From an uncultured Candidatus Saccharibacteria bacterium (lineage in GTDB: Bacteria; Patescibacteriota; Doudnabacteria; UBA920), in contig CAZEKH010000002.1 in the NCBI GenBank assembly GCA_964512925.1, positions 57,831 through 121,830 of the forward strand: 64,000 bases of DNA, read 5' to 3'. Under the pieces are notes generated by a model. That model had not been told where the DNA came from, did no database searches, and worked only from the letters and a program-made list of their open reading frames with translations. Of this stretch, positions 18,528 to 38,443 are shown in pieces; the stretch's first letter is position 1; every line of letters starts with the position of its first letter. Made by a program: the position numbers and the translations under genes.

Positions 18528-19850
18528 CTAATAGTCTTTAAGCTTATGCACGCTGGTATGGTCGCGGATTTTTTCCAAAGCTTTGGACTCAATCTGCCTG
18601 ATGCGTTCGCGGGTTACCCCAAACTCTTCGCCCACTTCTTCCAAAGTATGAGTTACGCCGTCTTCAAGTCCAAAACGCATTTTTAATATCTTTTGCTCTC
18701 TGGGGTCCAGGTCGTGCATTATGCCCTGCACATACTCTTTCAAAATCTGCCGGCCTGCCATATCGTGGGGCTTGGCTGTGTCCTCGTCAACAATGAAATC
18801 CCCCAAAGAAGTATCTTCCCCTTCGTCTTCGCCTACGGGAGAATCTATGGATACCGTTTCCTGGGAAATCTTTTTTAAGTGGTAAACTTTTTCCACCTCT
18901 ATGCCCATCTCAGCAGCTATCTCTTCCGGCAAAGGTTCTCTGCCTAAATCCTGAACCAAGGACCTTTCAGCCTGGGCGTACTTATTTAAAGTTTCCACCA
19001 TATGCACCGGAATGCGGATGGTGCGGCTTTGGTCGGCTAAAGCGCGGGTGATAGCCTGCCTTATCCACCAGGTTGCATAAGTGGAAAATTTATAACCTTT
19101 AGTCCAATCAAATTTTTCTACTGCACGGAAAAGACCTAGGTTACCTTCTTGAATAAGATCCAAAAGTCCCAAATTTCTTCCCATATATTTTTTTGCAATG
19201 GAAACCACCAGCCTTAAGTTAGCTTCAGTCAATTTCTTCCTGGCTGCCACATCGCCCTTTTCCACTCTTTTTGCCAAATCAATTTCTTCCTCGCCAGTCA
19301 AAAGAGGCACCTTGCCTATCTCGCGCAAATACATCTGGATAGAGTCATCGTAAATGTCGCCCAAGTCAAAAGCCTCAGCCGTTTCTTCCTGTTGTTTCTT
19401 TTTTTTCTTGGCCGCGGCTTTGGCTTTGGAATCTTTCGGCTCCTCTTCCGGCTCGGCTTTTTTGTTCTGCTCCCAAACGCTGGCGACTTCCTGATCAACC
19501 ACTTCCACGCCGCGCTTGTCTAAGATGTCTAAAACTTTTTCCAAGGCTTCCACATTGTCTTCAAAATACGGAAAAGCGTGGAGGATCTCAGCTTCCGTGA
19601 CAAAACTCCGTTCAAAGCCCTTATCCAAAAGTTTTTGCGCCAATTTTTCCGCTTCCTCGGCTGAAAACTCGGGCAATTTGTTTTTGATTTTGATTTCAGA
19701 TTTTTTCTGCAGACGCCTCAAAATCGCCTTTTTTACACTCGGGTTTTTTTTGCCCGCAGTTTTTTTAAAGGTTTTTTTTGCCCGCAGTTTTTTTAAAGGT
19801 TTTTTTACCTTTGCACTTTTCTTGATTTTGCTGACTTTATGCTTTTTCAT
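18528..19850 (-). CDS. rpoD: RNA polymerase sigma factor RpoD (sigma-70) with Lys-rich N-terminal extension
   Basis: Regions 1.2-4.2 are present ([39 protein letters not shown], region-4 HTH). Adjacent to dnaG. Confidence 0.9.
19743..19798. repeat. perfect 28-bp tandem duplication (2 copies) containing A8/A7 homopolymers inside the rpoD 5' coding region
   Basis: GTTTTTTTTGCCCGCAGTTTTTTTAAAG occurs twice head-to-tail. The two copies are read in different frames ([11 protein letters not shown] vs [10 protein letters not shown]). Confidence 0.7.
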
Positions 19851-21715: not shown

Positions 21716-23344
21716 CTAACTCTCAGTTATATCTGGAGAGATCGCATAGTGGTCGAGTGCGCTCGCTTGGAAAGCGAGTAAACCTTTACCGGTTTCGGGG
21801 GTTCGAATCCCCCTCTCTCCGCCAGATTTCCAAGTTTGAACCGAAGTGTTTGCAAGGCTTTTTGAGCCTTTAGACGGCTTCGGAGGTTCGATCTTGGAGA
21901 CTTGCAAGTCCATAAGAACATCAAAGACTGGCGTCCATATCGGCGTCAGTTTTTGATTCCTGACGACAAAACCCTCAAAGCAAAGCTTCATCAATGTACG
22001 CTTTTGGTGCAAACCACTCGTCTGGAATACTCTATCCGCATGATCAGTGAAGTCCAAAAGCTCGTTGAACTTTTGAACAAACTTGTCCGACTTTCCCTCG
22101 AGCTCTCCCAAGCGATCCTGATACATCTCTTTCTCTCGCAAGAGCTCGTCCTGAATCTTTATAAATACATCTGCGTCAATGATGCGTTTTGAACGATCCA
22201 CCACGATATTGCGGATCTGTTGCTGAAGCCTTATAAGCTCTTGCTTGAGACTTTTTCTCTCTTTATCCTCCTGATCCAAACGCTCTTTAGCGAAATATTG
22301 AAAATAAGAATCAAGTACCTTTTTGAATTTATCTGGAAGCTGTACTCGTCCGAGCATTACTGCAACCTGCGCCTCGACATCCTCCCAGCGCATATATTTC
22401 TTTTCTACACACTTGGGGTCTTTACGATGACTGCACGAATAATATAGATGGCCTTTTTGCATTTGACCACAAAGCATTGATCCGCAGTCACCACACCTCA
22501 TAAAACCAGCCATTGGATACGAGTGCTTTCGTGTGCGGTCGGCGTAGTGATTATGTTGCTCGATAATTTCTTGAACATCATCAAAAAGTTTTTTGGTTAC
22601 AAGAGGAGGAAAATTTGCCTGAGAAGTTGCTGAGCGAGTTTTAATAAGACCGTAATAGAGTGAATTTGCCAGTATATGCTCAAGAGTCTTACGGCCGACC
22701 AATTTGCCACTGCGAGTCTTTAAACCACGTTTATTGAGCTCTGCTGACAGAGATTCGTAGGAATACTTGCCGGAAGCATAAAGCTCAAAAGCCAACTTTA
22801 TATACGGAGCTCGAATATTATCGATTATAAGCGACTTAGACTTCTTATCATTTAAATAGCCTAAAGGTGCCACTCCCGGAAACCTGCCACGTTCTACAGC
22901 CTCTTTAAGACCTTTCTTGACCTCCCAGCTGATGTTCTGAGATGTCCATTGAGCGATTGACGACATGATGTTTTCAACAAGCTCACCGGAAAAGGATTCA
23001 TCAAATTGCTCGACTACTGAGATAAGGCGGACGTCATGCTTCTTTAGCATCATCTTGATAGCCGCGTAGTCGGCGACGTTACGGCACATACGGTCAAGCT
23101 TGTGGATTAGGATAACATCAACTTTATTGTCGGTCTTTGCTCGATGAAGCATTTTTTGAATCTGTGGACGTTCAACGGTTCGAGCTGATTCACCTTTTTC
23201 TTCATAAACGCCATCTGGTAGTAGATTCCAATGGTGATCCATGCCGTATTTTTGGCATGCTTTGACCTGTGCAGGAATACTCAATTCTCGTTCGGCCTGA
23301 CGAGAGGTAGAGACACGGCCGTAAATTAAATAATTTGTGCTCAT
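21716..23344 (-). CDS. large serine recombinase (phage integrase); annotated 3' end reads through tRNA-Ser
   Basis: N-terminal resolvase catalytic motif (LIYGRVSTSRQ), recombinase domain, Cys-rich zinc ribbon (CGDCGSMLCG...YYSCSHRK) and coiled coil. The last ~35 codons are antisense to the tRNA. Confidence 0.85.
   Translation of the reverse strand: MSTNYLIYGRVSTSRQAERELSIPAQVKACQKYGMDHHWNLLPDGVYEEKGESARTVERPQIQKMLHRAKTDNKVDVILIHKLDRMCRNVADYAAIKMMLKKHDVRLISVVEQFDESFSGELVENIMSSIAQWTSQNISWEVKKGLKEAVERGRFPGVAPLGYLNDKKSKSLIIDNIRAPYIKLAFELYASGKYSYESLSAELNKRGLKTRSGKLVGRKTLEHILANSLYYGLIKTRSATSQANFPPLVTKKLFDDVQEIIEQHNHYADRTRKHSYPMAGFMRCGDCGSMLCGQMQKGHLYYSCSHRKDPKCVEKKYMRWEDVEAQVAVMLGRVQLPDKFKKVLDSYFQYFAKERLDQEDKERKSLKQELIRLQQQIRNIVVDRSKRIIDADVFIKIQDELLREKEMYQDRLGELEGKSDKFVQKFNELLDFTDHADRVFQTSGLHQKRTLMKLCFEGFVVRNQKLTPIWTPVFDVLMDLQVSKIEPPKPSKGSKSLANTSVQTWKSGGERGIRTPETGKGLLAFQASALDHYAISPDITES
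21735..21824 (+). tRNA. tRNA-Ser (anticodon GGA), type II with long variable arm, CCA encoded
   Basis: Hand-folded: acceptor GGAGAGA/TCTCTCC, 3-bp D stem, anticodon stem CTCGC/GCGAG with loop TTGGAAA, variable arm AAACC..GGTTT, T-arm GGGGG-TTCGAAT-CCCCC, G-CCA. Confidence 0.85.
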
Positions 23345-24943: not shown

Positions 24944-25549
24944 ATGGCGCCAGACGTGAAGGGAGGAATAAGGTGCGATCTTGAGGTCGATCCACCTTTT
25001 TATTCGTTGTCCATGCCGGATGAAAAAATAAAAGTCAGAGATTTAAGAAATGGCGATTGGTACTGGGTCAGCAAAGTGCTTCTCGATGAGTACGGCGACC
25101 GACTCAAGCCGATCGGCATTGCGATTTATAACTGCCTGGCGGCTCATGCTAATCAGGAGGGTTTTTGTTTTCCGTCTCATGGCTACATCGCCAAGAAAAT
25201 CGGTGCGAGCATCTCAAGCGTCCAACGTGGCATTCGGGATCTCATCAAACTGGAGATCATCCGCAAGAGCCGCCAGCGATATCACAATGTGTATTACCTG
25301 TTGAAAATAGATAGGTCATATAGACCGAACTCAAACGAGACCGGTCAGGCAGACCGGCAGTTCGGTCACACAGACCGGTCAGATCAGTCAGCCGGAACTA
25401 CTAACAAGAATAAAGAAAAAGAATTAATTAATAAGAAATCCGGATTTTATAAAAAAACTGGGGATAACTTAAAAGAAATGAAAGCTCTGCTCGTTGAAAA
25501 AATGTCGATACCGGGTCCGAGAATAAGATCGCCGCTTGATGACACCTAA
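24944..25549 (+). CDS. winged-helix DNA-binding protein (possible phage replication/regulatory protein)
   Basis: GYIAKKIGASISSVQRGIRDLIKLEIIRK is a winged-helix-type HTH. Location in the early region. Confidence 0.5.
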   Translation: MAPDVKGGIRCDLEVDPPFYSLSMPDEKIKVRDLRNGDWYWVSKVLLDEYGDRLKPIGIAIYNCLAAHANQEGFCFPSHGYIAKKIGASISSVQRGIRDLIKLEIIRKSRQRYHNVYYLLKIDRSYRPNSNETGQADRQFGHTDRSDQSAGTTNKNKEKELINKKSGFYKKTGDNLKEMKALLVEKMSIPGPRIRSPLDDT

Positions 25550-25691
25550 TCCTGAATTTGCCGGTTCGGGAGTAGTCGAACCTGAACTGCAAATCTTATT
25601 CATTAATCCCTCTATGATGAGGATCGAGGATTTCTGAAGCCGAACATTTTTGTGAGCGACACCCAGAAGCCTCTTGCACAACTAAAACAGT

Positions 25692-25991
25692 ATGGATAAA
25701 GAGGAGTACAACGTAGGAAATTGTCCCCATTGCACGAAAATTATTTTTCGCGATGGTAAATTTAATTCCGAAGCCACGTTCACAACAAGGTGTCCTCACT
25801 GCCAGAAACCTCTCAAGGTGACAATAAGGAAAAGGATAGAGATTATCATCGTGCCACTCGAGCCAAAGCCGGGATGCAAGATCGACAAGAAAATAACCGG
25901 CGGTCTCATCGTTCTGATCGTAGTTCTTTATTTGCCTCCGCTGATCAGCTTTTTGAACGATGCATCCGACATATTGGACGCATTGACCTGA
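25692..25991 (+). CDS. small zinc-ribbon protein with C-terminal TM helix
   Basis: CPHC...CPHC pair plus hydrophobic C-terminus. The overlapping minus ORF 25596..26099 looks like antisense. Confidence 0.4.
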   Translation: MDKEEYNVGNCPHCTKIIFRDGKFNSEATFTTRCPHCQKPLKVTIRKRIEIIIVPLEPKPGCKIDKKITGGLIVLIVVLYLPPLISFLNDASDILDALT

Positions 25992-26215
25992 CGGACAACG
26001 GTTCTTCGAAATCAAGAACAAAAAGGAGCCAGAAAAGCCCCTTTTTGCCATTTGTTTGCCCCTTGGGCGAGCTTTGTGACCCGGGCCAGAGATTTGCACC
26101 AGTTGCCCGACAATTTTACATATTTGACCGAGGTTGATAGATCGTGCCAGTTTTTATTAAAAAAAGATAAACATCCGCTGGACTTGTTCCGAGGGTAAGC
26201 ATATGTTCGTGTTGT

Positions 26216-26530
26216 ATGCTCGACTTTGACCACGATGACATCCAAGCAGTGATCAAGGCCGCCAAAGACGTGCGGCCAAAGTATCACGGTTGGATCGCAA
26301 ATCCAATATCTTCGCTTCCCGAACCGAAAGCAAAACTAAAAGCCGCCATAAAAGAACGGATCAGACTTTTAGCTGGATCATATATTGCACTTGCTGGATT
26401 CGTAGACGATGACGACTTGAAAGCGGCCGAGGACAATCCGGAAAAGACAAAAGTTATCTATCAGAAAATCCTCGAGGACATGGAAAAAGCACAGAAAGAA
26501 ATGCGGGAATTTAAAATAATAGATTTATAA
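26216..26530 (+). CDS. hypothetical protein
   Basis: 104-aa ORF with balanced composition. No known motif. Confidence 0.4.
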   Translation: MLDFDHDDIQAVIKAAKDVRPKYHGWIANPISSLPEPKAKLKAAIKERIRLLAGSYIALAGFVDDDDLKAAEDNPEKTKVIYQKILEDMEKAQKEMREFKIIDL

Positions 26531-26538
26531 AAAGAAAG

Positions 26539-26577
26539 AACCCCCGGTCAGCTTCCGTAGAAGCCGAACCGGGGGTT
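26539..26577 (-). terminator. GC-rich hairpin terminator closing the minus-strand ARC-like cassette (bidirectional context)
   Basis: AACCCCCGGTCAGCTTC-CGTAG-AAGCCGAACCGGGGGTT with a T-rich tract on the minus-strand side. Confidence 0.55.
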
Positions 26578-26591
26578 GTTGATTGAAAGAA

Positions 26592-27005
26592 CTACTGTTG
26601 TAACTCCTTGATGGTCGTGTCCTGCTCGATGAGCTTTTCTCTCGCTTTTTCGAGCGCGGCCCGCAGGAGATCTGCCTCGTCATTGTTCTCAATGATCAAT
26701 CCTTGGAAGGATCGATAGACAACGAACGAAACAGGCATTGCGAGGGCGACGATGGCGAAAGCGGACAGTACGAGGTCAAGCGGCCACCACCATTGAATAA
26801 TCCTCGGCTGGTAGCATGCTACCAGTGCGAAGCTCACCCAATGACTCATGCAGTACGGGCAAGTGAACAGCTTTCCGAGCCATTCATTGCGTTCTCGTAT
26901 CCACTCGCGCAGATACTGGAACACACTTGCTCTTGTGATGGTAAGCGAGATGACGGCGACTGGCAGTGACAGGAGAAGCACCACCAAAAGCGACTGTGTA
27001 TTCAT
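26592..27005 (-). CDS. small 3-TM membrane protein with CPYC motif
   Basis: Start set at the ATG after TAAGGAGG (MNTQSLL...). FTCPYCMSHW sits between TM1 and TM2. Last gene of the coupled cassette. Confidence 0.5.
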   Translation of the reverse strand: MNTQSLLVVLLLSLPVAVISLTITRASVFQYLREWIRERNEWLGKLFTCPYCMSHWVSFALVACYQPRIIQWWWPLDLVLSAFAIVALAMPVSFVVYRSFQGLIIENNDEADLLRAALEKAREKLIEQDTTIKELQQ

Positions 27006-27016
27006 GGCGTTCCTCC

Positions 27017-27187
27017 TTAACACCCACACTGCTTGCGCGGCGTGGTTTTTTGTAGGAGCTTGTCGATCTCATTCAAGAGATCTCCAACCTCCGGGACTTC
27101 AGCCTTCCGATCCTTCAGCTCGAGCGGAGTGTTGCCGTTGCCGTTGGTCGGACGCTGTGTTTTCGGTTTTTTCTGATCGAATTGCAT
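27017..27187 (-). CDS. 56-aa protein with Pup-like Mpa-binding helix motif (EVGDLLNEIDKLLQK), C-terminus ...RKQCGC
   Basis: ATG preceded by AAGGAGG, 10 nt after the AAA gene stop. DLLNEIDKLL resembles Pup DDLLDEIDDVL. It lacks the GGQ/GGE end. Confidence 0.45.
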   Translation of the reverse strand: MQFDQKKPKTQRPTNGNGNTPLELKDRKAEVPEVGDLLNEIDKLLQKTTPRKQCGC

Positions 27188-27197
27188 AGCGTCCTCC

Positions 27198-29192
27198 TTA
27201 ATTGGCCGCGGCGCCGGAACTCTGCCGGAGCTTGCGGATACTGACGACGTCGTCGCGGAAATCGTGAACGAAATCCGCAATCTCATCGTTGTGGTTGAGG
27301 TCGAAGTTCTGCTGGAACACGCATTCCACAGACTGCATCAAGTCATCCTTCGACATCCCTTGCGGTTTGCCGGTGGAGATATCCCGATGCAGGGCAATGG
27401 ACGTTGCTTGATCCACAACGCCAGCAATCATGGCACCACTGGCCAAGTCTCCCAGCGTGAAGCTACGAGTCTCGTCTTTGTGATTGCCGTTGAGCTGGAT
27501 CGAGTAGAGCACGCGTTTTTCCGAGAACAACTCGAGCGCGCCGACATCCGAGAGCTCGTCATGCGTGTAGCCGTTGTAAAGCGGCACTCGCTTGAGGTAG
27601 AGCCCGAAGATATCACGCGAAGCGTTGAGGTCGGGACGGATGATTTTGACCTTGCGGTCAACACGCCCGTCGCGCGTAACTGCCGGATCGAGGATGTCAG
27701 CCCGATTGGTTGCCAAGAGCACGATTGCTCCGGTTTCCTCGAGGCCGTCCATCTCTGCCAGGAACTGAGGAACGATGGTACGCTCGATGTCCGAACTGAT
27801 TCCCATGCCACGCTTACCGAGAATAGCGTCAGCTTCGTCGATGAAGATCACCGCCGGGTAGCCGTGCTGTTCCTTGTGCTTGCGCGAACGTTGGAAGATC
27901 TGTCGGATGGTTGCCTCCGCAACACCCACGAACCGGTCCAAAATTTCAGGGCCTTTGACGTAGATGAAACCGGAGGGAGCGGAACTGCCGCTGTGAAGCT
28001 TGGCGAGCGCTGTTGCGGCCGCCTTGCCGAGCATGGTCTTTCCGCATCCGGGAGGGCCGTACAGCAGGACACCCTTGATGGGCTTTTTGCCGTAGTGCTT
28101 GTAAATGTCCGGGTAACGGAATGGGAGTTCGATCGCTTCGACCATCTGCTTTTTGGCTTCCACCAAACCGCCGATGTCTTCCCATGCGACATTCGTTGCC
28201 GCCGTGAATGAGAAGCGTTCGTCCTCTTTGCCGAGGTTGAGTCCGATGACAGTGGCACTCTGGTCGAGAACCACGCGATCACCGATTTCCGGTTTAGCCG
28301 GAAGTTTACCATTGAGCACGACACGGATTGCTCCGTTGTGCTCGACTTCGCTCACAGTGTTGTCGATTGGCCGCCGCACGATGGAAATTTCTCCAGCGTA
28401 AACGGGAATCGCCACGTCCACTATTTGCATTGTCTGCATGGACAGCTTGACGGTGTCGCCCGGTTTGACATCTTTGTTGGCCGGCAACTCGACTTCGAGT
28501 TGCTTGCCTTCGTGGAGGACGATTGCCGTGCCGATGAACTGGTTTACGGGTTCGACATAAATCGAGGTCCCGACCCAGAACCAAGGCTCGTCATCAACCT
28601 TCTCGATGCGGACTCTGCGCCATTCTCCGTCGACGTTCCGGATCGTACCGGTTTTGCCGACATAGCGCTTGTCGCCGTTCTCGAACTTTCCAACGATGTC
28701 GACCTTGATTCCCTGAAGGAAATCCTGGGGTCTCGCATCGGGCTGATTCGGGATGGCGAGAGTCATGTTCTTGATCTGGGCGTAGTAGCGACTGGTGTCT
28801 CCGTCACTGAACTTAACGGTAATAACACCGTCGGAGTCCGGAGTGCGAACCACCATGCCGACTTCACCTTCACGATTGTCTGCGCCGGGCAGGATACGCA
28901 CCTGCGTATCTTTGGCGTATGCCGTTTTCTTTTCTGCATCGACGCGCAACACCACAGCGAGCACGAGCGGTGAGGCCGTGAGCTGTTGAAGCAGTTCGTT
29001 CTGCTCTGCCAGTTTGCCTTTGGCGGCTTCGAGCACCGCACGAAGCTCTTGAACTTCTTGCGAACTCTCGACCTCAAGCTGTTGCTTGAGCTGGCCGATA
29101 GTGTTCTGCAACTTCTCGGTTTGGGATTGACGCTGTTGATTCAGCTCTTCCCGTTTCGTGAGCATTTCGCCCAATTCGTCTCTCTTCTTCAT
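27198..29192 (-). CDS. ARC/Mpa-type (proteasome-associated-ATPase-like) AAA+ ATPase: N-terminal coiled coil, OB/beta-barrel region, AAA module
   Basis: Walker A GPPGCGKT, Walker B VIFIDEAD, second region of homology TNRADILDPAVTRDGRVDRK. ARC-type insertion AKLHSGSSAPSGFIYVKGPE and C-terminal SGAMIAGVVDQA...TGKPQG block. No C-terminal GQYL. Confidence 0.8.
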   Translation of the reverse strand: MKKRDELGEMLTKREELNQQRQSQTEKLQNTIGQLKQQLEVESSQEVQELRAVLEAAKGKLAEQNELLQQLTASPLVLAVVLRVDAEKKTAYAKDTQVRILPGADNREGEVGMVVRTPDSDGVITVKFSDGDTSRYYAQIKNMTLAIPNQPDARPQDFLQGIKVDIVGKFENGDKRYVGKTGTIRNVDGEWRRVRIEKVDDEPWFWVGTSIYVEPVNQFIGTAIVLHEGKQLEVELPANKDVKPGDTVKLSMQTMQIVDVAIPVYAGEISIVRRPIDNTVSEVEHNGAIRVVLNGKLPAKPEIGDRVVLDQSATVIGLNLGKEDERFSFTAATNVAWEDIGGLVEAKKQMVEAIELPFRYPDIYKHYGKKPIKGVLLYGPPGCGKTMLGKAAATALAKLHSGSSAPSGFIYVKGPEILDRFVGVAEATIRQIFQRSRKHKEQHGYPAVIFIDEADAILGKRGMGISSDIERTIVPQFLAEMDGLEETGAIVLLATNRADILDPAVTRDGRVDRKVKIIRPDLNASRDIFGLYLKRVPLYNGYTHDELSDVGALELFSEKRVLYSIQLNGNHKDETRSFTLGDLASGAMIAGVVDQATSIALHRDISTGKPQGMSKDDLMQSVECVFQQNFDLNHNDEIADFVHDFRDDVVSIRKLRQSSGAAAN

Positions 29193-29485
29193 GACTGACC
29201 TCCTGACCTTTTGACGTAGTTTTGAGTTTGACCATCTTCGGGATTTTCGAGGCAGACGTCGACTGCTCTCAAAACTTTTGTTCCCGACTGGTCGTCAATT
29301 GTGCCGACAGCGAAATGGACATTGAGCCCTCTCGCCAGTTCCAGTCCACCACGGACTGAAGCCACGACAAGCTTTTGCCCATCGTGCGGACTTTCGGAAT
29401 CTTTCACACGCACCTTCCAGGTCGGTTGACCTTTCGGGGATGTGTCAGACCCGACAACGAAACCTCTGTGCCGTTTCTGATCCAT
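29189..29485 (-). CDS. 99-aa beta-rich protein ending ...NYVKRSGGQS; stop overlaps the AAA gene ATG
   Basis: Start set at the ATG after AAAGGAG (MDQKRHRG...). The C-terminal tail resembles the Pup tail (AYVQKGGQ) plus one Ser. ATGA start/stop overlap with the downstream gene. Confidence 0.45.
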   Translation of the reverse strand: MDQKRHRGFVVGSDTSPKGQPTWKVRVKDSESPHDGQKLVVASVRGGLELARGLNVHFAVGTIDDQSGTKVLRAVDVCLENPEDGQTQNYVKRSGGQS

Positions 29486-29759
29486 GACCTTACTCCTTTC
29501 TGACCGGTATGTTTCTGTTGTTGCCGTTTGACCGAATTTGACCGTTTTGACCACCTCCTTTTCAGTTTTCAAAGATCTACTTCGGTTTCCAAGACACACG
29601 CCTTGGAATAGCTCATTATCGCATATTTGGCTTTGTTTGTCAATAACCAAGCCAAAACGCCGATTTTAGCTAACTTCTAAGCCCTATATTGCCGCCTAGG
29701 TAAGTTTTATACAAATTTCAGAGATTAAAGGATCTCCACTTTTACCTACTTTTTTATAT

Positions 29760-30092
29760 TCAATTTTGAAAAATATAAATCAAATTATTCCTGAAAATAA
29801 AAACAAGGACAATGAAAAATAAGGTCCCCAACAAGGAAATCTTTGAGTAATTATCGGCATGAGTTTTGCCGCCAATCAGAATATAGGTGAGCTCGTCAAC
29901 AAACAAGCCGAGACCTATAGCGAATACCAGCACGGAATGAATAAGTAAACCCACCACTATCCCGAGGAGTCCAAACATGTAATGGTGCGTTCTGAATTTT
30001 CCGATCGTCGGTGCTGGTATTGGGCGTAGAAAAAGAAATAAACGAGTAGCCAAAATAGTTATCAAAAAAGTAAAAAAGAAGTAGATATTCAT
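29760..30092 (-). CDS. small polytopic membrane protein
   Basis: 110 aa with about 3 TM helices. ATGA-type overlap with the upstream SET-domain gene. Confidence 0.45.
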   Translation of the reverse strand: MNIYFFFTFLITILATRLFLFLRPIPAPTIGKFRTHHYMFGLLGIVVGLLIHSVLVFAIGLGLFVDELTYILIGGKTHADNYSKISLLGTLFFIVLVFIFRNNLIYIFQN

Positions 30093-30469
30093 TTTATTTC
30101 TCGGTGCTGGTCGATGTCGCCGTAAAAATCTTTATAATTCACAATCAATTCTTCTCCCGACTGTATGTCTCTCATTGCTGTCGTTATATCATCCATCCTC
30201 TCGTCGCAATTTGGATTGTCGGAATGATTGAAAAAACGAGCATCATCAGAACATAGTAAATACTTACTGTGCTTTTTATCAAGATATGCGTAATTGTAAA
30301 ACTGTTCTTTTGCCGGTCCAGATAGCTTTTTGATCTCTTCTTCCGTCATTAGGAGATCAAACCCCGGCATAAACTTCCAGACAGCAGTTCCTTTTGGAAT
30401 AAATTGATCAGCAAATAGACCTATACCCTGAATCTTACTTGGTGCAATTTTTGTTTTTACGCATAGCAT
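30089..30469 (-). CDS. minimal SET-domain protein (putative protein-lysine methyltransferase)
   Basis: GIGLFA...IPKGT (N-SET GxG), RFFNHSDNPNC (the NHSCxPN SAM/pseudoknot motif), GEELIVNY (ELxxxY). Size is about that of viral vSET. Confidence 0.75.
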   Translation of the reverse strand: MLCVKTKIAPSKIQGIGLFADQFIPKGTAVWKFMPGFDLLMTEEEIKKLSGPAKEQFYNYAYLDKKHSKYLLCSDDARFFNHSDNPNCDERMDDITTAMRDIQSGEELIVNYKDFYGDIDQHREIK

Positions 30470-30478
30470 AAATTTCTT

Positions 30479-33463
30479 TTACGATCTTATATATTTCTCG
30501 TCTCTAATATCGAAAGCCGGCAATGTACCCTCAAGTACATCGGAAGCCTTTTTATTTATATCGCAATTCTCGATACTGCCGAATGTATATCTGATCTGAT
30601 TTTTCTGTTTATTCATCGAGGCGGCGATGATCTGTTCAGCATCACAGACGATAGCCAAGTTGGGATTGTGGGTAACAATGATAACCTGTCTTTTTAGTTT
30701 TGCTTTCCGGATATACGGCACCAAAAGTTCAAAAATCGACTCGTTGTCGAGATTTTCCTCCGGCTGATCCATAATTAAAGGTCCACGGTCTTTATCGATC
30801 AGCAAGTAGAAAATCAAGAGAAGGGCACCCTTTTCACCCGGAGAGAACTCGTTGCTGTTCAAGTCCTTGCCGTTGAATAAAACTTTATATTTAACATCGA
30901 GATAATCTAAACCAAAGACGTAATCGTAGAATGAGACATTGTCACCCTTCAGTTGAGAGCAGATCGTGTTCTGTTTTTCTGGGGTCTTTGTCTTGTCGCT
31001 CGTAAGGTGATCGATCAATTCCTGCCTGAACGCCTTGACTCCGATAGGATTTGAAAAATCAGCTTTCTCGATAACCTTGCCGAGTATCTTTTGCCCGTTA
31101 TCGGCATACTGAAAGCTTCCATCACGACCCTGATTTATGAACCCTAAGAATTTAGCTGGGAATGATGCCTTGTCGAATACAATGCCTGCATCGAACTCGA
31201 GCATGCTACCCGTTTTCTGTTGCGTTTCTTTTTCTGACTCGATGAATTTTTGGAGAGGCATATAAACCTCTTTGTAAAATTCGCTTTTTTGTTGAAGTCC
31301 GGAATATAGCTTGTCGGACAGACCATCTCTGCTTACCATCGCCGCCTTCAGATCGGCATGAATTTTTTTATCAAGGTATTTTATTTCAGCCTCAATTGAT
31401 TTGATGGTCTCAAAAGTTTGATCATCGGCCGTTCCTTCAATCTCTTTTTTGCGCTCATTGTATTCCTTGAGTTTGTCTTGATAGGTCGAATATTTTCTCT
31501 GATCCTCACCAAGAACATCGATCAGTTTTTTCTTTTGACCTTCCAGCTCCAATTTCTTAGCATACAAACTGGTAGACGAAGTTCCGTTCTGATCAAGAAG
31601 TACGGTCAGCTTATCTCTTTTTGTGGTGAGCTTACTTTCTGTCGATTCAAGGATTTTGCTATGGACTGTTACCGTAAATAATTTTGTAAGGTCGATCGAA
31701 AGAAGTTTTGCGTCATCCGCAAAATCTCTTGAAATACTATCTGCACTTTGGGAGAGACGTTCAACTGCCGCCTTTAATTTTCCGAGTTTCAGGATCTTAT
31801 CGTTTACCGATTTGAGCGTGGCTTTTGTAGTATCTATTCTTGTTGAGACGGTCCCGATCTCGGTGGTTATTTTTGCGAGTTTATCTTGATCGCTTTTCTT
31901 GGGCTGTTTTTTGGGAGCCTGCACAGCTTTCGGCTTGGCCAGACTATTTAGTTCCTGCTGTTTGGCTTTGAGTTTGTTGCTCAGTGTTTCAAGATACTTA
32001 GGCAGTAGTTTATTTTCTAATTTTACGATCTCCTCGTTGGACAGATGTAAATCATTCTTGATCTGAGTGAGATTGCCATCGATTGTCGAGGTCTTGATGC
32101 GGATAAGGTCTTCAAGTGTAGTCGCTCCAAGTCGGCTCTCATCGGGGATATAAGAAAAAATAACTTTGTCTACTTCTCTCTGAAACTGGGTACTGACACC
32201 ATCTTCGTTGCATATCGTCTCAACGTATTTCTGCGGTAGATATTTAACTTTCTCAACTTCGGCCGGATTAACTTCGGCATCAAGATTTTCGGTGACTGAC
32301 GTCTTATCCAGCCAAGTCAAAACCGCCTCGTAATTTTTGGCGAGTCCTTTCTTTCTGAATTTGTCCTTATTAAGAAAGGAGAAATCCTTCGGTGCTATTT
32401 TGGTTCTTCCACAAAGAGCGATGATGTCATTCAGAGCACTTTTGCCTTGACCCTTTCTGCCTATGATCGCTACCAGTCCGGGGTTTAAGGGTATATCATC
32501 GTTGAACCAACCGGAGACTTGTTTGCCATCTGTATTACGGACATTTATAGATTCGATGAATCTCGAACTATTTGATTCAACGTCCATCAATTTATCCGGT
32601 TTGTCACCAAAGAATGTTCGTTCTCTCGGTTCGTGAGTAATCTGCCGCAAACCCTCGAAAGTTTTGTCTGCTTTTATCCAAGTCGGATAAGTGTGCCTGC
32701 CTTCATTTAAAAACGTCTTGCCGACCTTATCATCAAAATCTTTGAAAGAGTGTGCGTCGCTCCCTGAAACACACGGTTTTTTCTTTTTTACCTCGCCGCG
32801 ATCATTAAGGAAAAATTCTCTGTCCTTATCGTCACAGCCAAAGTAAATATCCGCCACTCGTTTGTCAGTTTCTTCGGCGACTGCGTTTTTTCTTGAATTA
32901 TTTTTTTCCGGTTGGAGACCTCCATGACCATGAGCCATTAGTATTCTAAAATAGGGCTTCTTGTCTCCAAAGGTATCCTTAAGAGCCTCGTCGATGAGCG
33001 GAATTGTTGTAAAGGCAGTTTTGAAATCACTGTCGGTTTTAAGCTCGTTCGCCTTTTTCTTCTTGCCGTTTCCGTCCGTATTTTCCAACTTCAAATTGGA
33101 CAAGAAGCTCTGCAAATCTTTGTCGGGTAGTTCATTGTTAAAAATAAGATGCAGATCATAGCCCTCATTGTGACTATTGGACGAACGATCGACTCGCAAT
33201 TCTACATTTGGGAAAAACACCTTTTCGGATTTTGGATATTTGGCTTGAAATTTCTTTTTGAATTCCAGATAATTCTCGACTGAAAAATAATCGGTAATGC
33301 CGAAAACTTCCACGTCTGATCGCTCAACCTTGTCGCAGAATTCAGCCCAGACATCACCGCCGTTGGCCAGGGCGTATCCGTTGTTTAATTTGGTAAAAGG
33401 CACGTGGAGATGTAAATCCCACTTTCGCCATTCTGAACCTTTTGGATAAGCTAAATTGCCCAT
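30479..33463 (-). CDS. PHP-domain + SMC/ABC-type ATPase fusion protein (architecture of the Ppl defence protein)
   Basis: PHP motifs DLHLH, GITDY, PNVELRV, GSDAHS. Walker A GRKGQGKSAL, about 350-aa coiled coil, signature FSPGEKGALL, Walker B LIMDQPEENLD, H-loop VTHNP. Confidence 0.75.
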   Translation of the reverse strand: MGNLAYPKGSEWRKWDLHLHVPFTKLNNGYALANGGDVWAEFCDKVERSDVEVFGITDYFSVENYLEFKKKFQAKYPKSEKVFFPNVELRVDRSSNSHNEGYDLHLIFNNELPDKDLQSFLSNLKLENTDGNGKKKKANELKTDSDFKTAFTTIPLIDEALKDTFGDKKPYFRILMAHGHGGLQPEKNNSRKNAVAEETDKRVADIYFGCDDKDREFFLNDRGEVKKKKPCVSGSDAHSFKDFDDKVGKTFLNEGRHTYPTWIKADKTFEGLRQITHEPRERTFFGDKPDKLMDVESNSSRFIESINVRNTDGKQVSGWFNDDIPLNPGLVAIIGRKGQGKSALNDIIALCGRTKIAPKDFSFLNKDKFRKKGLAKNYEAVLTWLDKTSVTENLDAEVNPAEVEKVKYLPQKYVETICNEDGVSTQFQREVDKVIFSYIPDESRLGATTLEDLIRIKTSTIDGNLTQIKNDLHLSNEEIVKLENKLLPKYLETLSNKLKAKQQELNSLAKPKAVQAPKKQPKKSDQDKLAKITTEIGTVSTRIDTTKATLKSVNDKILKLGKLKAAVERLSQSADSISRDFADDAKLLSIDLTKLFTVTVHSKILESTESKLTTKRDKLTVLLDQNGTSSTSLYAKKLELEGQKKKLIDVLGEDQRKYSTYQDKLKEYNERKKEIEGTADDQTFETIKSIEAEIKYLDKKIHADLKAAMVSRDGLSDKLYSGLQQKSEFYKEVYMPLQKFIESEKETQQKTGSMLEFDAGIVFDKASFPAKFLGFINQGRDGSFQYADNGQKILGKVIEKADFSNPIGVKAFRQELIDHLTSDKTKTPEKQNTICSQLKGDNVSFYDYVFGLDYLDVKYKVLFNGKDLNSNEFSPGEKGALLLIFYLLIDKDRGPLIMDQPEENLDNESIFELLVPYIRKAKLKRQVIIVTHNPNLAIVCDAEQIIAASMNKQKNQIRYTFGSIENCDINKKASDVLEGTLPAFDIRDEKYIRS

Positions 33464-33580
33464 ATTTACCAGTAAACTAAACTAATGTTTATAAATGCAT
33501 TATATCCCTCTTGACTTCATTTTGTCAATAATATACACTGGAAATAAGGAAATATAGACATTCCAGCGAACAAAACCACT

Positions 33581-34150
33581 ATGGACAGCTTAATTGCAAA
33601 ATTATATCAGTCAAATAAGACAATCCTGACCACCAAGGATCTGGCTTTGATTTGGGAGGAAAACGACAAACTGAAGTTAAACGTTAAAGCCGGATATTAC
33701 GTTAGACAGGGTGCATTGATCCGCCTGACCAGAGGCGTTTTTGCTAAGGATAAAAACTTCAATTCAAAGGAACTGGCGACCAGTCTCTATACTCCCTCCT
33801 ACATCAGCTTTGAAACGGTCTTGAGAGAATCCGGTGTTATCTTCCAGCACTACGATACAACCTTCGTTGCCGCCCAGCACCCGAAAACGGTAACGATCGA
33901 TAAATACACCTTCATCTTCAGAAAGCTGAAGGATGCTGTGCTGTTCAATACCACGGGAATAATAAACAAGGATAACTACAGCATCGCCACTCCGGAGAGA
34001 GCCTTCTTGGACATGATTTATCTGTCGCCGAATTACTACTTCGACAATCTGAAAGGGATCAACTGGGAAAAGTGTGAGGAGATCGTGAAAATTTACGATA
34101 ACAAGCAATTAATCAAGAGGTTGAATAAGTATAAGAAAAATTCTCAATAA
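33581..34150 (+). CDS. AbiEi-family antitoxin/transcriptional regulator (type IV TA)
   Basis: N-terminal wHTH-like segment. Size and pattern resemble AbiEi. Immediately precedes an AbiEii-type NTase. Confidence 0.6.
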   Translation: MDSLIAKLYQSNKTILTTKDLALIWEENDKLKLNVKAGYYVRQGALIRLTRGVFAKDKNFNSKELATSLYTPSYISFETVLRESGVIFQHYDTTFVAAQHPKTVTIDKYTFIFRKLKDAVLFNTTGIINKDNYSIATPERAFLDMIYLSPNYYFDNLKGINWEKCEEIVKIYDNKQLIKRLNKYKKNSQ

Positions 34151-34154
34151 AAAT

Positions 34155-34868
34155 ATGTTGAATAAAGAAAAGCATCAGTTAATAATGGGTCAGGTTTTGA
34201 AAGACATCTATACCGATGTCTCGATTAGTCCGCTCTTGGGTTTCAAAGGCGGCACCTGTGCTTACTTTTTCTATAACCTGCCGAGATTCTCGGTGGACTT
34301 GGATTTTGATTTGCTGGAAGTGACCGAGGAAAACCAAAAGATGGTTTTTGAAAAGATTGTCGCTATTTTAAGCAAGTACGGGACAATCAAGGATCAGTAC
34401 ATCAAGAGGTTTACAGTTTTTGCATTACTCTCCTACGGCGACGAGGATCACAATGTCAAAGTTGAGATCAATGTCCGCAAGCTGGCGGAAAATATAAAAG
34501 ACCTTTACGAGATGAAGGAATATCTGGGTATTTCAATGTTGGCGGCCAAGAAAGATTATTTGTTCGCTGGCAAATTGGCGGCTTTGACTTTGAGAACCGA
34601 AACAGCCATGAGAGACATTTTTGATATCCAGTATTTTGCCAAGAATCACTGGGATATCAATGCTGAAGTCATAAAGAATTTTACCGGGAAAACCGTCAAA
34701 GAATATCTGCCGGATTGCATCGCCTTTATCGAGAAAACCAAAGACAGCCAAATGTTGCAGGGGTTGGGAGAGCTGATTGATAGCGAGAAGCAGAAAGACT
34801 GGGTCCGAAATCACCTGAAAGCGGATGCTATCTTTATGCTGAAAAATTACCAATCTGTATTAAAATAA
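34155..34868 (+). CDS. AbiEii/AbiGii-family nucleotidyltransferase toxin
   Basis: NTase motif GGTCAYFFYNLPRFSVDLDFD (GS...DxD) and DUF1814-like C-terminal region. Confidence 0.75.
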   Translation: MLNKEKHQLIMGQVLKDIYTDVSISPLLGFKGGTCAYFFYNLPRFSVDLDFDLLEVTEENQKMVFEKIVAILSKYGTIKDQYIKRFTVFALLSYGDEDHNVKVEINVRKLAENIKDLYEMKEYLGISMLAAKKDYLFAGKLAALTLRTETAMRDIFDIQYFAKNHWDINAEVIKNFTGKTVKEYLPDCIAFIEKTKDSQMLQGLGELIDSEKQKDWVRNHLKADAIFMLKNYQSVLK

Positions 34869-34875
34869 AAACATT

Positions 34876-35358
34876 ATGGACAAAGAAAAAGACAAACGAT
34901 ACCTAAAGAAGTTCGAGATCGTCGAAACCGAAGTCGAACTTCCGATCCAAGGCCAAGTCCGTGATCCGGAAGACCTGTATAAGTTCCTCAAAGATTTGGA
35001 AAGTGAAAGTGTTTCCAAGGTTATAGGAATTTACCTCGATGACAAAAACCTCTTCCTCGGACACCAAGTATTCCTCGGCATGTCACCGCAGATTTTTGAT
35101 ACGCAACTCCTATACCACTACTACGCCCTCTTTCTGGCCAAGAAGTTTATGATCCTGATAAACCACCCGAACTCTGATGATCCGACTCCGGATGATGCTG
35201 ACAAGAAGCTGATCCGGGCCCTGCAAGCCGATGCTCAAGTGCTCTCGTTTAAACCTTTCTTTGCTGATTTTATTATCGTGGCAGGACGGTCATATTTCAG
35301 TATGGCCACAAACGACGGCACTGCTGGTCATGTGCATCAAAAGCATATACCGGAGTAA
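34876..35358 (+). CDS. RadC-like JAB/MPN-domain protein
   Basis: INHPNSDDPTPDDAD matches the RadC HNHPSGxPxPSxxD metal-binding motif. Confidence 0.65.
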   Translation: MDKEKDKRYLKKFEIVETEVELPIQGQVRDPEDLYKFLKDLESESVSKVIGIYLDDKNLFLGHQVFLGMSPQIFDTQLLYHYYALFLAKKFMILINHPNSDDPTPDDADKKLIRALQADAQVLSFKPFFADFIIVAGRSYFSMATNDGTAGHVHQKHIPE

Positions 35359-35508
35359 GCTCTTTTTCCCCACTTTTCTGCTAAAATAGCTGAACAACTG
35401 AATAAAGGCCTAAACCCGGTCCCGGGCATGGTCGCAAAACCATCCAACTGTCCTCGCAAAGGATTTTTCCGTGCATGTTGCGGAAGATGGTTTTGCGAGG
35501 ATTTTGTT

Positions 35509-36558
35509 TTACTCATGAATCCAATACCAGCACTGGTTTTTAAGGTCTTGGCTCAGTTGGTAGGTGTGAGCATGAGAAAGCGCACCCAAGTACGACTGAA
35601 GCGACTGAAATAAAGAATGTTCGTCGATCTCGCCTCGACGAAATTGCATCACTCGGTATTTAAGTTTACGAAATATTCTATGTTTCGTTTTGCTTCTAAG
35701 TAACCGATAGTGTGGCAGAATCACGTATCCCAAAAAATCTACTCCTTGGCCAACGTCAAGAATTGAACATTTCGTGGGATGCAAAGATAGCTTCAATTTG
35801 TCCCCGATAAATTTCTGGAACGAAATGATGAGGCTATCCAGATATTCTTTGTCTGTCGATACAACTATAAAGTCGTCGGTGTAGCGCGCGTAATGTTTGA
35901 CTTTTAAGTCATGCTTAACGAATTGGTCGAATTCGTTCATGTAGACATTGGCAAACAATTGCGAAGTAAGATTGCCGATCGGAAGACCGTGACGATCAAA
36001 AAGTGTCGTTTGGCCGGCCGCAAAGCTTCTGACAATCTGCTCCAATAGCCACATGGTGTCCGGATCAGCAAGTCGTTTTCTGAGAATTGCCAAAAGAATT
36101 TCGTGATCGATCGAATCGAAAAACTTTCGCACATCGCATTTGAGAGCAAAACAAGGCCTTGTATAGTTTTGGCTCTCTTTCCGGATCATGCTCTCGGCCG
36201 CCAACACTCCCTTGTGCGTCCCTTTGCCAACCCGGCATGAAAATGAATTGGCAATAAAGGTCTTCTCAAAAATAGGATTCAGGATTCGGAAAACCGCATG
36301 GTGCAAGACTCGATCTCGCACCATAGCCTTGTGAATGTGGCGAACTTTCGGATCGCAAATGTAAAAACTTGCATACGGTCCATGGGAATAACGCTTGGTA
36401 ATCAAGTCGTGATGCAAAGGGAAAAGATTTTGCTCAAGCGAAAACTCGAAAGCCTGAACATCAGCCTTCTTGCCCTTATCGCTTCGGAACTGCTCCCATG
36501 CCTTAACAATATTTTCCAGCGATGTGATCTGATTGAATAAATCCTTATAAATCTTCAT
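35509..36558 (-). CDS. diversity-generating retroelement reverse transcriptase
   Basis: RT motifs 1-7 including GLPIGNLTSQLFANVY (the I/LGxxxSQ form typical of DGR RTs) and YTDDFIV (YxDD). Start set at MKIYKDLF... (an upstream ATG is possible). Confidence 0.85.
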   Translation of the reverse strand: MKIYKDLFNQITSLENIVKAWEQFRSDKGKKADVQAFEFSLEQNLFPLHHDLITKRYSHGPYASFYICDPKVRHIHKAMVRDRVLHHAVFRILNPIFEKTFIANSFSCRVGKGTHKGVLAAESMIRKESQNYTRPCFALKCDVRKFFDSIDHEILLAILRKRLADPDTMWLLEQIVRSFAAGQTTLFDRHGLPIGNLTSQLFANVYMNEFDQFVKHDLKVKHYARYTDDFIVVSTDKEYLDSLIISFQKFIGDKLKLSLHPTKCSILDVGQGVDFLGYVILPHYRLLRSKTKHRIFRKLKYRVMQFRRGEIDEHSLFQSLQSYLGALSHAHTYQLSQDLKNQCWYWIHE

Positions 36559-36562
36559 AACT

Positions 36563-36913
36563 ATGAATGACTTTGATATTCCCATCTTCAAGAAAGCGTA
36601 CGATCTGTTCAAACTCTTTCATGAATACAGAAGGGTTGTGCCAAAACAAGATCGGTTCACGATTTTTGAACGGTGCGAACAGCTAATTCTTGACGTAATT
36701 GAAAGCATCCTGCAAGCAAGCAGTGAGCAAAAGCAGGTAAAAGTTCCAACACTGGAACGATGCAGTCTAAAACTTAACATGCTCCGGGTCTTTATCCGAC
36801 TAATGAAAGACATTAGAGCGATCGACTCAAAAAAGTATGTAGCATTAGAAAGTGTCGTGGACGAAATCGGCCGAATGCTCGGTGGCTGGATTCGGTCAAC
36901 TAAATCCTGTTAA
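36563..36913 (+). CDS. avd: DGR accessory variability determinant (Avd-like four-helix-bundle protein)
   Basis: 116 aa. The C-terminus VDEIGRMLGGWIRSTKS resembles Bordetella phage bAvd (IAEVGRILGSWIARVNRKG). Start is 5 nt from the RT start on the opposite strand. Confidence 0.7.
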   Translation: MNDFDIPIFKKAYDLFKLFHEYRRVVPKQDRFTIFERCEQLILDVIESILQASSEQKQVKVPTLERCSLKLNMLRVFIRLMKDIRAIDSKKYVALESVVDEIGRMLGGWIRSTKSC

Positions 36914-36959
36914 TAGAAAGGGCATCCGTTTTTCGGATGCCCTTTCTTGTTGTAGAGAG

Positions 36960-37090
36960 ACTTCGAGAGGAAGGCTGAAGCGGAACCGTAGTTCTCGTTG
37001 GCATCGTCGAACCACTTGGTGTCGAACTTGACCCCGTCGTCGTCGAAGTTGAAGATCGGGGCGTTCGAGAAATCGCCATCGGCATCCGGA
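36960..37090 (-). repeat. DGR template repeat (TR), 131 bp
   Basis: Reverse complement aligns base-for-base with 38311..38441. The 9 mismatches are all adenines in this copy. It carries AAC codons where VR varies. Confidence 0.85.
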
Positions 37091-37558
37091 ATATTGTCCC
37101 CATCCATCCGTGTCACCGAGCTTTGAGCTTTACTTCCCGTTGGAAACGGAACTATGAGCTCTTAGCTTTGAACTTAATTTGACAGTATTTACCTCACGGC
37201 AAAACCTGTACCAGACGAGGGCAAGCAGTATCCCATCAACACAACACGCTCATAGAAGCCGTAGCCTCCATGACTCTGGTTGCTATCGTTGAAACGATAG
37301 AGTTCGGCGACAGCAATCCTTGAATGGCTGTACATTAGCCTATACTCAAGCCTATTATACCCCAAAGAGATTGCCGCCTCAAACGCCTTGACAAAACGCA
37401 TTAAATTTGTTAAGGTGAAGCGTCTGAATAGTTCTTTGTTATTTGGCTTATTTATGAGGTAGCGCATTGGGCGTAATTGCGTTTTTGTGCCTATTGCGCT
37501 ACCTCACACAGAGGAAAGCCGTTTGCCAGAGCGACTCTGGTAAATTCAAATTAGGAGG

Positions 37559-38443
37559 TTGACGATGACGACACAATCGATCACGTCCATCACAGACGGT
37601 CAGAGAAAGCAGTACAAACGGTTCGTTGAGGACGCCGCAGACAAAGCGCTTGCGGAAGTCGGACTCGACAAGGACGGAATTCAGAAGCTCATCGAAAAGG
37701 GCGATGAATTCCAGTCACGGATCGTGGAGGCAGTCCGGGAACTTTCCGTGAACGATGAGTTTGCGGACGAGGAAGTTGAATCGAACTATGAATACCCGGG
37801 TGTCTACAAGGTCAGGGCTGTCGCTGAACAAGTGGCAACGTTGCGCGAGGTCTTTCCGGAACTCAAGGACGCCACATTCGACGAAAGCATCGCCGCGAGG
37901 CCGCTTCCCCCGAACGCCGAAGGATGGTTCGCCATCCCCAGGTGGGAAAAGCTTGCTTCTGTCTACGGCGAAGCCGTCGACAAGATGCTTGCGACCATGA
38001 GGTCCGAACGCCGCCGATTCCAAAACTATTGTGAGGATCGGACGGGCGAGGAATACCTGCGCCAGCATGCCAAGACGGTCAAAGCGTTCCAGAAGCTCAT
38101 CGACGAGCAGAAAGGACACGACATTCTGATCGTTCCGTGCCAGTTCGGTCTCCGTCACCGCGGACGCTCGGTTCGCCGGGCCCACGAAGTGATGAACGCC
38201 GCAGAGTTCGGTCTCGGCGCATTCGCTGTCGGGTGTATGCTACTGACACATCCCGAACGGCTCCAAGCCTACGAGAACCTGTTTGTCGACTGCGCCGGAG
38301 ACGAATACTCTCCGGCTGCCGATGGCGATTTCTCGCACGCCCCGCTCTTCCGCTTCGACGACGACGGGGTCGAGTTCGACACCCAGTGGTTCGACGATGC
38401 CAACGAGAGCTACGGTTCCGCTTCAGCCTTCCTCTCGCAGTAA
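37559..38443 (+). CDS. DGR target (variable) protein, 294 aa, no signal peptide, VR at C-terminus
   Basis: RBS AGGAGG. The C-terminal 44 aa (ADGDFSHAPLFRFDDDGVEFDTQWFDDANESYGSASAFLSQ) is encoded by VR. TR encodes ...SNAPIFNFDDDGVKFDTKW...ENYGS... Confidence 0.75.
   Translation: MTMTTQSITSITDGQRKQYKRFVEDAADKALAEVGLDKDGIQKLIEKGDEFQSRIVEAVRELSVNDEFADEEVESNYEYPGVYKVRAVAEQVATLREVFPELKDATFDESIAARPLPPNAEGWFAIPRWEKLASVYGEAVDKMLATMRSERRRFQNYCEDRTGEEYLRQHAKTVKAFQKLIDEQKGHDILIVPCQFGLRHRGRSVRRAHEVMNAAEFGLGAFAVGCMLLTHPERLQAYENLFVDCAGDEYSPAADGDFSHAPLFRFDDDGVEFDTQWFDDANESYGSASAFLSQ
38311..38441 (+). repeat. DGR variable repeat (VR), 131 bp, ending at the target gene stop
   Basis: 122/131 identity to TR. 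All 9 differences (A>C x6, A>G x3) are at TR adenines. A GC hairpin CCGCCGCAGGCGG lies 50 bp downstream. Confidence 0.85.

Follow-up and report, generated by a model that had tools for sequence, protein, structure and literature searches.

The pairing of an N-terminal PHP phosphoesterase domain with an SMC/Rad50-like ABC ATPase in a single polypeptide is the architecture of Ppl, which Gao and colleagues are said to have reported in 2020 as a single-gene anti-phage protein of Escherichia coli. Ppl is reported to be a 3'-5' exonuclease on single-stranded DNA, for which 3'-OH ends are the trigger and which is freed from inhibition by nucleoside triphosphates (PMC12904381; Xu et al., Mol Cell 2026;86:180, cited in PMC13434339). 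The same architecture is found in TrlF, named after the middle gene of the temperature-restriction locus trlR-trlF-trlG of Photorhabdus laumondii (PMC7554251). Here we analyze a TrlF-family gene in a 64,000-nucleotide stretch of DNA from an uncultured bacterium of the Patescibacteria (contig CAZEKH010000002.1, positions 57,831 to 121,830), which is referred to as the window and whose internal coordinates are used throughout. The gene (30479-33463, minus strand) encodes 994 amino acids (aa) and is followed on the same strand by a gene for a minimal SET-domain protein of 126 aa, a putative protein-lysine methyltransferase (30089-30469; Pfam: PF00856), and by a gene for a small Patescibacteria-specific membrane protein of 110 aa (29760-30092), whose hydrophobic stretches would form three to four transmembrane segments. 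Our analysis supports no new three-gene system; judging from the sequence comparisons, it is very probable that separate cassettes landed side by side.

Conservation of the gene arrangement

Loci were scanned by tblastn, and the scans were repeated with profile hidden Markov models (HMMs), for 147 TrlF loci (80 from GTDB genomes and 67 viral) and 160 SET loci (80 metagenomic and 80 from IMG/VR). Of the 80 GTDB loci, 73 have 400 bp or more of sequence downstream of TrlF, and at none of these is a SET gene adjacent; none is present at the 67 TrlF-related viral loci. A single locus out of the 147 (L016) has a SET gene, which is 33% identical and lies 5 kb off. In the opposite direction, TrlF is found neither at the 80 metagenomic SET loci, of which 69 offer at least 500 bp upstream, nor at the 80 loci from IMG/VR. 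The adjacency of TrlF and SET was found solely in the contig of the window and in identical short Logan copies.

The closest homologues show the same picture. The five closest TrlF homologues (86-73% identity) all lack a neighbouring SET gene: the most similar one (86%) neighbours a patatin gene on the opposite strand; the next (80%) lies in the gene order N6/N4 methylase, ResIII helicase, TrlF and PD-(D/E)XK nuclease; two others neighbour unknown proteins of 149 aa (79%) and 334 aa (73%); and a second homologue at 73% comes after a helix-turn-helix (HTH) gene, a methylase gene and a type III Res gene. Likewise, TrlF lies beside none of the four closest SET homologues that were looked up (84-76% identity). 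These are placed between an HD protein and RidA (84%), next to a serine recombinase and together with the membrane gene, followed by other genes and a diversity-generating retroelement (DGR; 83%), between an unknown gene and a gene for an unknown 117-aa protein with a homologue of the membrane gene one gene upstream of SET (79%), and between the genes for arginyl-tRNA and isoleucyl-tRNA synthetase (76%).

At the nucleotide level, three loci (L007, L175 and L176) match the window in blastn only over approximately 30474/30478 to 33448/33464, which corresponds to the TrlF open reading frame (ORF), and one (L004) matches it only over 29842-30459, i.e. over SET and the membrane gene. Because the matches end there, we place the junction of two independently inherited segments within the 9-nt spacer between TrlF and SET. 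Furthermore, no SET-containing model in PADLOC matches, and we found no literature that links SET domains with Patescibacteria or with anti-phage defence, and a single paper on TrlF. The initial annotation had proposed a functional system of a Ppl-like ATPase, a SET protein and a membrane protein, and had suggested a survey for conserved SET and membrane genes downstream of the ATPase. Such genes are absent beside close and distant TrlF relatives alike (no adjacent case among the 147 TrlF and 160 SET loci or the nine closest homologues), and homology breaks at the spacer. The initial annotation had itself named a lack of conservation beside the ATPase as a refutation, and by this measure the proposed system is refuted.

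Transcription signals and base composition

The physical description of the locus given by the initial annotation is largely accurate: three ORFs of 994, 126 and 110 aa lie on the minus strand where it had put them, and SET and the membrane gene overlap by 4 bp. The tight spacing of TrlF and SET was also correct, but the distance from the TrlF stop to the SET ATG is 9 nt and not 10. The genes belong, as had been stated, to an AT-rich accessory part of a prophage, with GC contents of 0.366 (membrane gene), 0.378 (SET), 0.417 (TrlF) and 0.412 (the nearby AbiE genes) as compared to 0.491 in the late genes of the prophage and 0.545 in the adjacent AAA gene.

A consensus scan found a sigma-70-like promoter match on the minus strand at 33499-33528, 36 nt upstream of the TrlF start, with 12 of 12 consensus positions (TTGACA-18-TATAAT), whereby the sigma-70 consensus is not validated for bacteria of the candidate phyla radiation (CPR). 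The promoter and terminator scan revealed no terminator-like site among the three genes. Spacing and scan are in keeping with a single transcript. Since the full-consensus site lies upstream and no terminator-like site separates the genes, SET and the membrane gene are probably co-transcribed with TrlF; the promoter-like site likely drives TrlF and, by read-through, the two genes that follow. Such read-through is probably a consequence of an insertion 9 nt downstream of TrlF, and we see in it no evidence of shared function.

The TrlF protein

According to the NCBIfam model NF045780 ('TrlF family AAA-like ATPase'), the protein scores 634.2 bits against a cut-off of 350, with residues 8-991 aligned to positions 1-943 of the 944 in the profile. 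The NCBIfam model for Ppl (NF042955) gives 88.9 bits with a cut-off of 1000 (best stretch: residues 831-987), and the PADLOC model for Ppl (PDLC02208) gives 58.6 bits, with residues 852-989 on profile positions 757-890 of 894. As both curated models fail and align only the C-terminal 140-160 residues or so, an identity with Ppl was rejected. On these profile scores, the protein is a full-length member of the TrlF family, and TrlF is a sister family of Ppl rather than Ppl itself. The initial annotation was thus right about an architecture shared with Ppl but not about membership in that family, and PADLOC, by which it had hoped to see the assignment confirmed, speaks against it. The Prokaryotic Genome Annotation Pipeline also names plasmid homologues with 30-35% identity TrlF, while PHROGs contain nothing informative for TrlF, SET or the membrane protein. 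All of the closest TrlF relatives (73-86% identity) come from CPR or groundwater metagenomes.

The polypeptide begins with the PHP domain (residues ~1-300), which is followed by a Rad50/SMC-type ABC ATPase head split by a coiled coil of about 300 residues. Motif conservation was read from an alignment of 29 family members. In the PHP domain, residues D16, H18, H20, D58, E88 and D236 are invariant; H105 is retained in 21 and H238 in 26 of the 29 sequences, and both are present in the protein of the window. In the ATPase, all 29 sequences keep the Walker A motif (G335-K337-G338-x-G340-K341-S342), the Q-loop (Q411), the signature (S874-P875-G876-E877-x-G879), Walker B (D899...E902), the D-loop (D906) and the H-loop (H932). 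An AlphaFold2 model of the 994 residues (mean predicted local distance difference test 83.4, predicted template-modelling score 0.66) consists of an N-terminal alpha/beta domain, a split ATPase head and some 300 residues of long helices (~450-750). When this model was compared to the PDB with Foldseek, the heads and coiled coils of Smc, Rad50, JetC, MukB, LmuB and RecN were matched (E 2e-10 to 1e-6), and the N-terminal domain matched the PHP domain of RNase AM (7ug9, E 3e-4, TM-score 0.57); no Ppl structure is among the top 50 PDB matches. A sequence search of the PDB with phmmer gave only weak matches to Rad50. The Pfam PHP model (PF02811) matches 7 of the 29 family members and was not detected in the TrlF of the window by a Pfam scan, even at E<=0.1. 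Hence, the PHP assignment is based on the family HMM, the conserved motifs, the Pfam matches in those seven homologues and the fold match. The protein combines a complete set of PHP metal-site motifs, a complete set of ABC ATPase motifs and a Rad50/SMC-like fold, so that the fusion of a PHP domain to an SMC/Rad50-like ATPase, as described by the initial annotation, is confirmed; every motif that it had cited is found in the protein.

The SET gene and the membrane gene

The SET protein matches PF00856 with 58.8 bits (cut-off 22.4) over the full profile (positions 1-105). Its motifs G15-x-G17, R78-F-F-N81-H82-S83 and E106-E107...Y112 (EELxVNY) are conserved in 30 homologues, and a profile search of the PDB leads to the SET domains of KMT2C, KMT2D and KMT2A (KMT2/MLL; E ~3e-12). 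From these matches, the product is a putative protein-lysine methyltransferase. As its homologues occur in varied surroundings that lack TrlF, the gene appears to be an independent cassette. At least 282 homologues were found at E<=1e-3, mostly in Patescibacteria and metagenomes. Clustering of the ORFs around approximately 78 SET genes yielded the membrane-protein family (5 loci) and a few small clusters only; no conserved neighbour that would point to a substrate emerged from it. As a separate observation, related minimal SET proteins (28-50% identity) occur on at least 112 viral-contig stretches in IMG/VR, some on contigs of more than 200 kb; phage-borne SET genes seem to be common and little described.

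The membrane protein has three hydrophobic stretches, one of them sufficient for two helices. Its family counts about 100 members, is confined to Patescibacteria and has no match in Pfam, PADLOC, NCBIfam or PHROGs; a scan of IMG/VR found no relatives. Polar motifs are conserved in the family (FRxHHYMYG, GLFVDELTY and GGKTHxDNYS). We also noted near-invariant polar residues (R17, H36, H37, D66, E67, H78, D80 and N81) in or beside the hydrophobic segments. The polar residues suggest an enzymatic or ion-binding role rather than that of a simple anchor.

The most probable alternative to our reading is that SET and the membrane gene form a genuine two-gene, membrane-associated protein-methylation module of CPR bacteria, which is sometimes carried as a prophage moron and is independent of TrlF. 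The two genes are adjacent or one gene apart in the window and at five other distinct loci, in three arrangements: SET precedes the membrane gene with a 4-bp overlap in the window, L004 and L113, and with a gap in L119; the membrane gene lies upstream of SET in L164 and, with one intervening gene, in L179. Across these loci, the SET proteins are 83% to 48% identical to that of the window, and L004 and L179 have a serine recombinase nearby. Against this, the membrane gene accompanies only 3 of the 80 metagenomic and none of the 80 viral SET loci, its family is absent from IMG/VR, and the two homologues whose contigs were looked up have no SET gene nearby – one lies beside GNAT and RNase III genes, the other beside unknown genes. 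In addition, the co-occurrences could stem from a few ancestral arrangements. We therefore regard the module as a tentative possibility only.

TrlF neighbourhoods in other genomes

When the 924 ORFs that flank 84 TrlF genes were clustered all against all, no recurring partner family emerged at the level of BLAST similarity. According to Pfam, the 54 tightly linked co-directional neighbours are mainly restriction-modification (R-M) parts – HsdR/M/S, ResIII, MmeI, Eco57I, BsuBI/PstI, C5 methylase and Vsr – and R-M components make up roughly one third of the tightly linked neighbours across phyla. Other neighbours include an ApeA HEPN protein, a Schlafen-like helicase, Fic, DUF2130, toxin-antitoxin genes and one TrlG-like protein (HATPase_c_4). 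The distribution of TrlF is patchy across phyla, and full-length genes are present on 23 plasmid records (coverage of 80% or more) and on some 20 viral contigs that resemble prophages. The variable defence and R-M neighbours, together with the plasmids and prophages, are the hallmarks of a mobile gene of defence islands that is self-sufficient and often found inside R-M operons.

In close homologues (73-80% identity; L007 3354-11135, L011 1598-9730), TrlF takes the final or penultimate position in R-M operons that are type III-like and contain an N6/N4 methylase and a ResIII helicase/endonuclease, with or without a PD-(D/E)XK nuclease. In some lineages, TrlF may serve as an R-M accessory. For the window, membership in an R-M operon was rejected: no Mod or Res gene is adjacent, and the closest methyltransferase, a Dam of the D12 class, lies at a distance of 6 kb within the set of prophage genes.

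A second alternative, which we consider unlikely, is that TrlF acts as a housekeeping or phage factor of DNA repair or recombination, i.e. as an analogue of Rad50/SbcC in which the PHP domain replaces Mre11/SbcD. The best fold and sequence matches are indeed to Rad50, Smc, RecN and MukB, and in PolX and Pol III, PHP domains are nucleases that proofread or process ends. Such a role is difficult to reconcile with the patchy occurrence on plasmids and prophages, with variable neighbours enriched in R-M, ApeA-HEPN, Schlafen-helicase, Fic and toxin-antitoxin genes, and with the position beside AbiE in an accessory slot of a prophage; moreover, the sister family Ppl is an anti-phage exonuclease (PMC12904381; Xu et al. 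Mol Cell 2026, cited in PMC13434339).

The prophage and its cargo interval

Because of its phage genes and the origins of the closest homologues of TrlF, SET and the membrane protein (Paceibacterota, Minisyncoccia, Giovannonibacteria, Yanofskybacteria and groundwater metagenomes), the element that carries the three genes is interpreted as a prophage of approximately 38 kb in a Patescibacteria (CPR) genome. Upstream lie rpoD (18528-19850) and dnaG (19851-21611); dnaG is followed by a large serine recombinase (21716-23344, minus strand) and a CI/LexA-like (CI/S24) repressor. Further prophage genes encode a Dam methylase, a ParB-like protein, an SU10-type portal, a major capsid protein, and beta-helix and LysM proteins. 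Right after dnaG, a tRNA-Ser(GGA) of 90 nt is predicted on the plus strand (21735-21824), and the 3' end of the recombinase gene overlaps it; this is a possible attachment site or prophage boundary. Two further observations concern the host part of the window, namely a protein of 386 aa that weakly matches an ApeA-like HEPN (E 5e-4; 2500-3660) and a gene similar to deoxyhypusine synthase (PF01916, E 1e-29; 16934-18034).

Divergent from TrlF lies an AbiEi/AbiEii pair, a type IV toxin-antitoxin system of abortive infection (33581-34868, plus strand; PADLOC 197 and 227 bits, Pfam AbiEii), which is a separate defence cassette in the same hotspot. A gene for a RadC-like JAB domain protein (34876-35358, plus strand; PF04002; 80% aa identity to RadC of L007) marks one side of the variable slot. 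Beyond it follows a complete DGR (35509-38443), consisting of the reverse transcriptase (35509-36612, minus strand), bAvd (36563-36913, plus strand), the template repeat (36960-37090, read on the minus strand) and the variable repeat (38311-38441), which is located at the 3' end of a 294-aa target gene without a Pfam family (37559-38443). All nine differences between the two repeats fall on adenines of the template, which is the hallmark of a DGR. A search for direct repeats missed them since they are inverted; a search for inverted repeats recovered both. On the other side, directly after the membrane gene and on the same strand, a 153-aa protein without a family (p153) precedes a 664-aa AAA+ ATPase that resembles the proteasome ATPase Mpa/ARC (27198-29650, minus strand; TIGR03689 329 bits, below the cut-off of 505; PADLOC IetA 66 bits). 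Both the GC content of 0.545 for this pair and a promoter-like site with 11 of 12 consensus positions (29643-29615) were recorded; the latter suggests a separate transcription unit.

The related groundwater prophage L007 allows a direct comparison (window 24944-36913 versus L007 1-12386), with aa identities of 68% for the reverse transcriptase, 73% for Avd, 80% for RadC and 72% for HTH36. Between the DGR and the HTH gene, L007 carries Fic, RadC and the array Mod-Res-TrlF-PD-(D/E)XK; in the window, the same interval holds RadC, AbiE, TrlF, SET with the membrane gene, and p153 with the AAA+ ATPase. RadC is inverted relative to the other genes common to both. From this gene content, the interval looks like a cargo-swapping defence and moron hotspot of CPR prophages.

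Interpretation of the locus

We consider it highly likely that independent cassettes came to lie side by side by chance, in a slot for variable accessory genes (defence genes and morons) of a Patescibacteria prophage with a serine recombinase. The first cassette would be a stand-alone TrlF, in which a metal-dependent PHP phosphoesterase is fused to a coiled-coil ABC ATPase of the Rad50/SMC-like type. If Ppl is taken as a guide, TrlF would most likely be a DNA-sensing nuclease: its ATPase and coiled-coil part could recognize DNA ends or foreign DNA, nucleotide binding could gate the PHP exonuclease, and the protein could thereby restrict superinfecting phages or other mobile DNA and protect the lysogen. 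The second cassette would comprise the SET methyltransferase and the small CPR-specific membrane protein, which appear to travel together occasionally in CPR genomes and prophages; owing to their position 9 nt downstream, they would be read through from the TrlF promoter and have no partnership with TrlF. As far as architecture and neighbours indicate, TrlF is probably a stand-alone defence gene.

Several points weigh against this interpretation. The 9-nt spacing, the 4-bp overlap, the one strong promoter-like site and the lack of a terminator-like site make co-transcription likely in the genome of the window and, as far as the sequence alone can tell, leave room for a lineage-specific functional link. 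The phenotype of the Photorhabdus TRL operon, which represents the sole genetics on the family in the literature, was mapped to trlG, and no function was demonstrated for trlF (PMC7554251). Both the proposed part in defence and the putative Ppl-like mechanism are drawn from architecture and neighbourhood.

SET and the membrane gene could also have been recruited downstream of TrlF as a lineage-specific add-on, e.g. by methylating a nucleoid protein or TrlF and so setting the threshold of the nuclease, or be a real two-gene module for protein methylation in CPR bacteria and prophages; this composite reading appears very unlikely to us. That all three genes work as a single defence system, with methylation by SET of a DNA-binding protein of the host or a phage, or of TrlF, as a means of regulation or self-protection, is extremely improbable: the tight same-strand packing, the single promoter-like site and the common AT-richness relative to the remaining prophage would agree with it, but the adjacency is confined to this one contig and its Logan copies and fails in all surveyed loci, the breakpoints lie within the spacer, no SET-containing PADLOC model matches, and SET as well as the membrane gene can be found in housekeeping surroundings on CPR chromosomes.

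Both the TrlF and the minimal SET families are already named by annotation pipelines, and the locus adds one member to each. TrlF emerges as an uncharacterised sister family of Ppl that behaves as a mobile stand-alone defence cassette, often sits within R-M operons (of type I, type III or type IIL) and is present on plasmids and CPR prophages; this behaviour makes it a reasonable candidate for experimental testing. Furthermore, related Patescibacteria prophages have in common a cargo-swapping hotspot between a DGR cassette and an HTH gene, and minimal SET-domain genes are common in CPR genomes and viral contigs.

Comparison with known systems

Minimal SET lysine methyltransferases are known from prokaryotes and viruses, e.g. 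vSET of PBCV-1, Go1-SET of Methanosarcina and the chlamydial SET protein. The SET protein of the window shares with them a core-only SET domain of about 120-130 aa and the motifs GxG, NHS and ELxxxY, whereas its subfamily is concentrated in Patescibacteria and has no conserved genomic partner.

TrlF of the window and TrlF of Photorhabdus have the same combination of PHP domain, ABC/SMC-like ATPase and coiled coil and belong to the same length class (~950-1050 aa). In contrast to the TRL operon, the TrlF of the window has no TrlR or TrlG partner, and its host is a Patescibacteria prophage: the domains of TrlG (AlbA_2 and HATPase_c_4) and TrlR were not found in its flanking genes, and among the tightly linked upstream neighbours across the TrlF family, 1 of 27 contains HATPase_c_4.

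With Rad50/SbcC, SMC, JetC (Wadjet) and LmuB (Lamassu), TrlF shares an ATPase head split by an antiparallel coiled coil, and they are its best matches in Foldseek (E 2e-10 to 1e-7). In the Rad50, Wadjet and Lamassu systems, however, the nuclease is a separate subunit (Mre11/SbcD, JetD and LmuA, respectively), whereas TrlF carries the PHP nuclease in cis; unlike in these systems, no kleisin-like or other partner gene is conserved beside it. This leads back to Ppl: although the TrlF of the window falls below both curated Ppl models and aligns with them over its last 140-160 residues or so only, the two proteins have in common one polypeptide with an N-terminal PHP nuclease and an ABC/SMC-type NTPase, and Ppl is a plausible model for the mechanism of TrlF.

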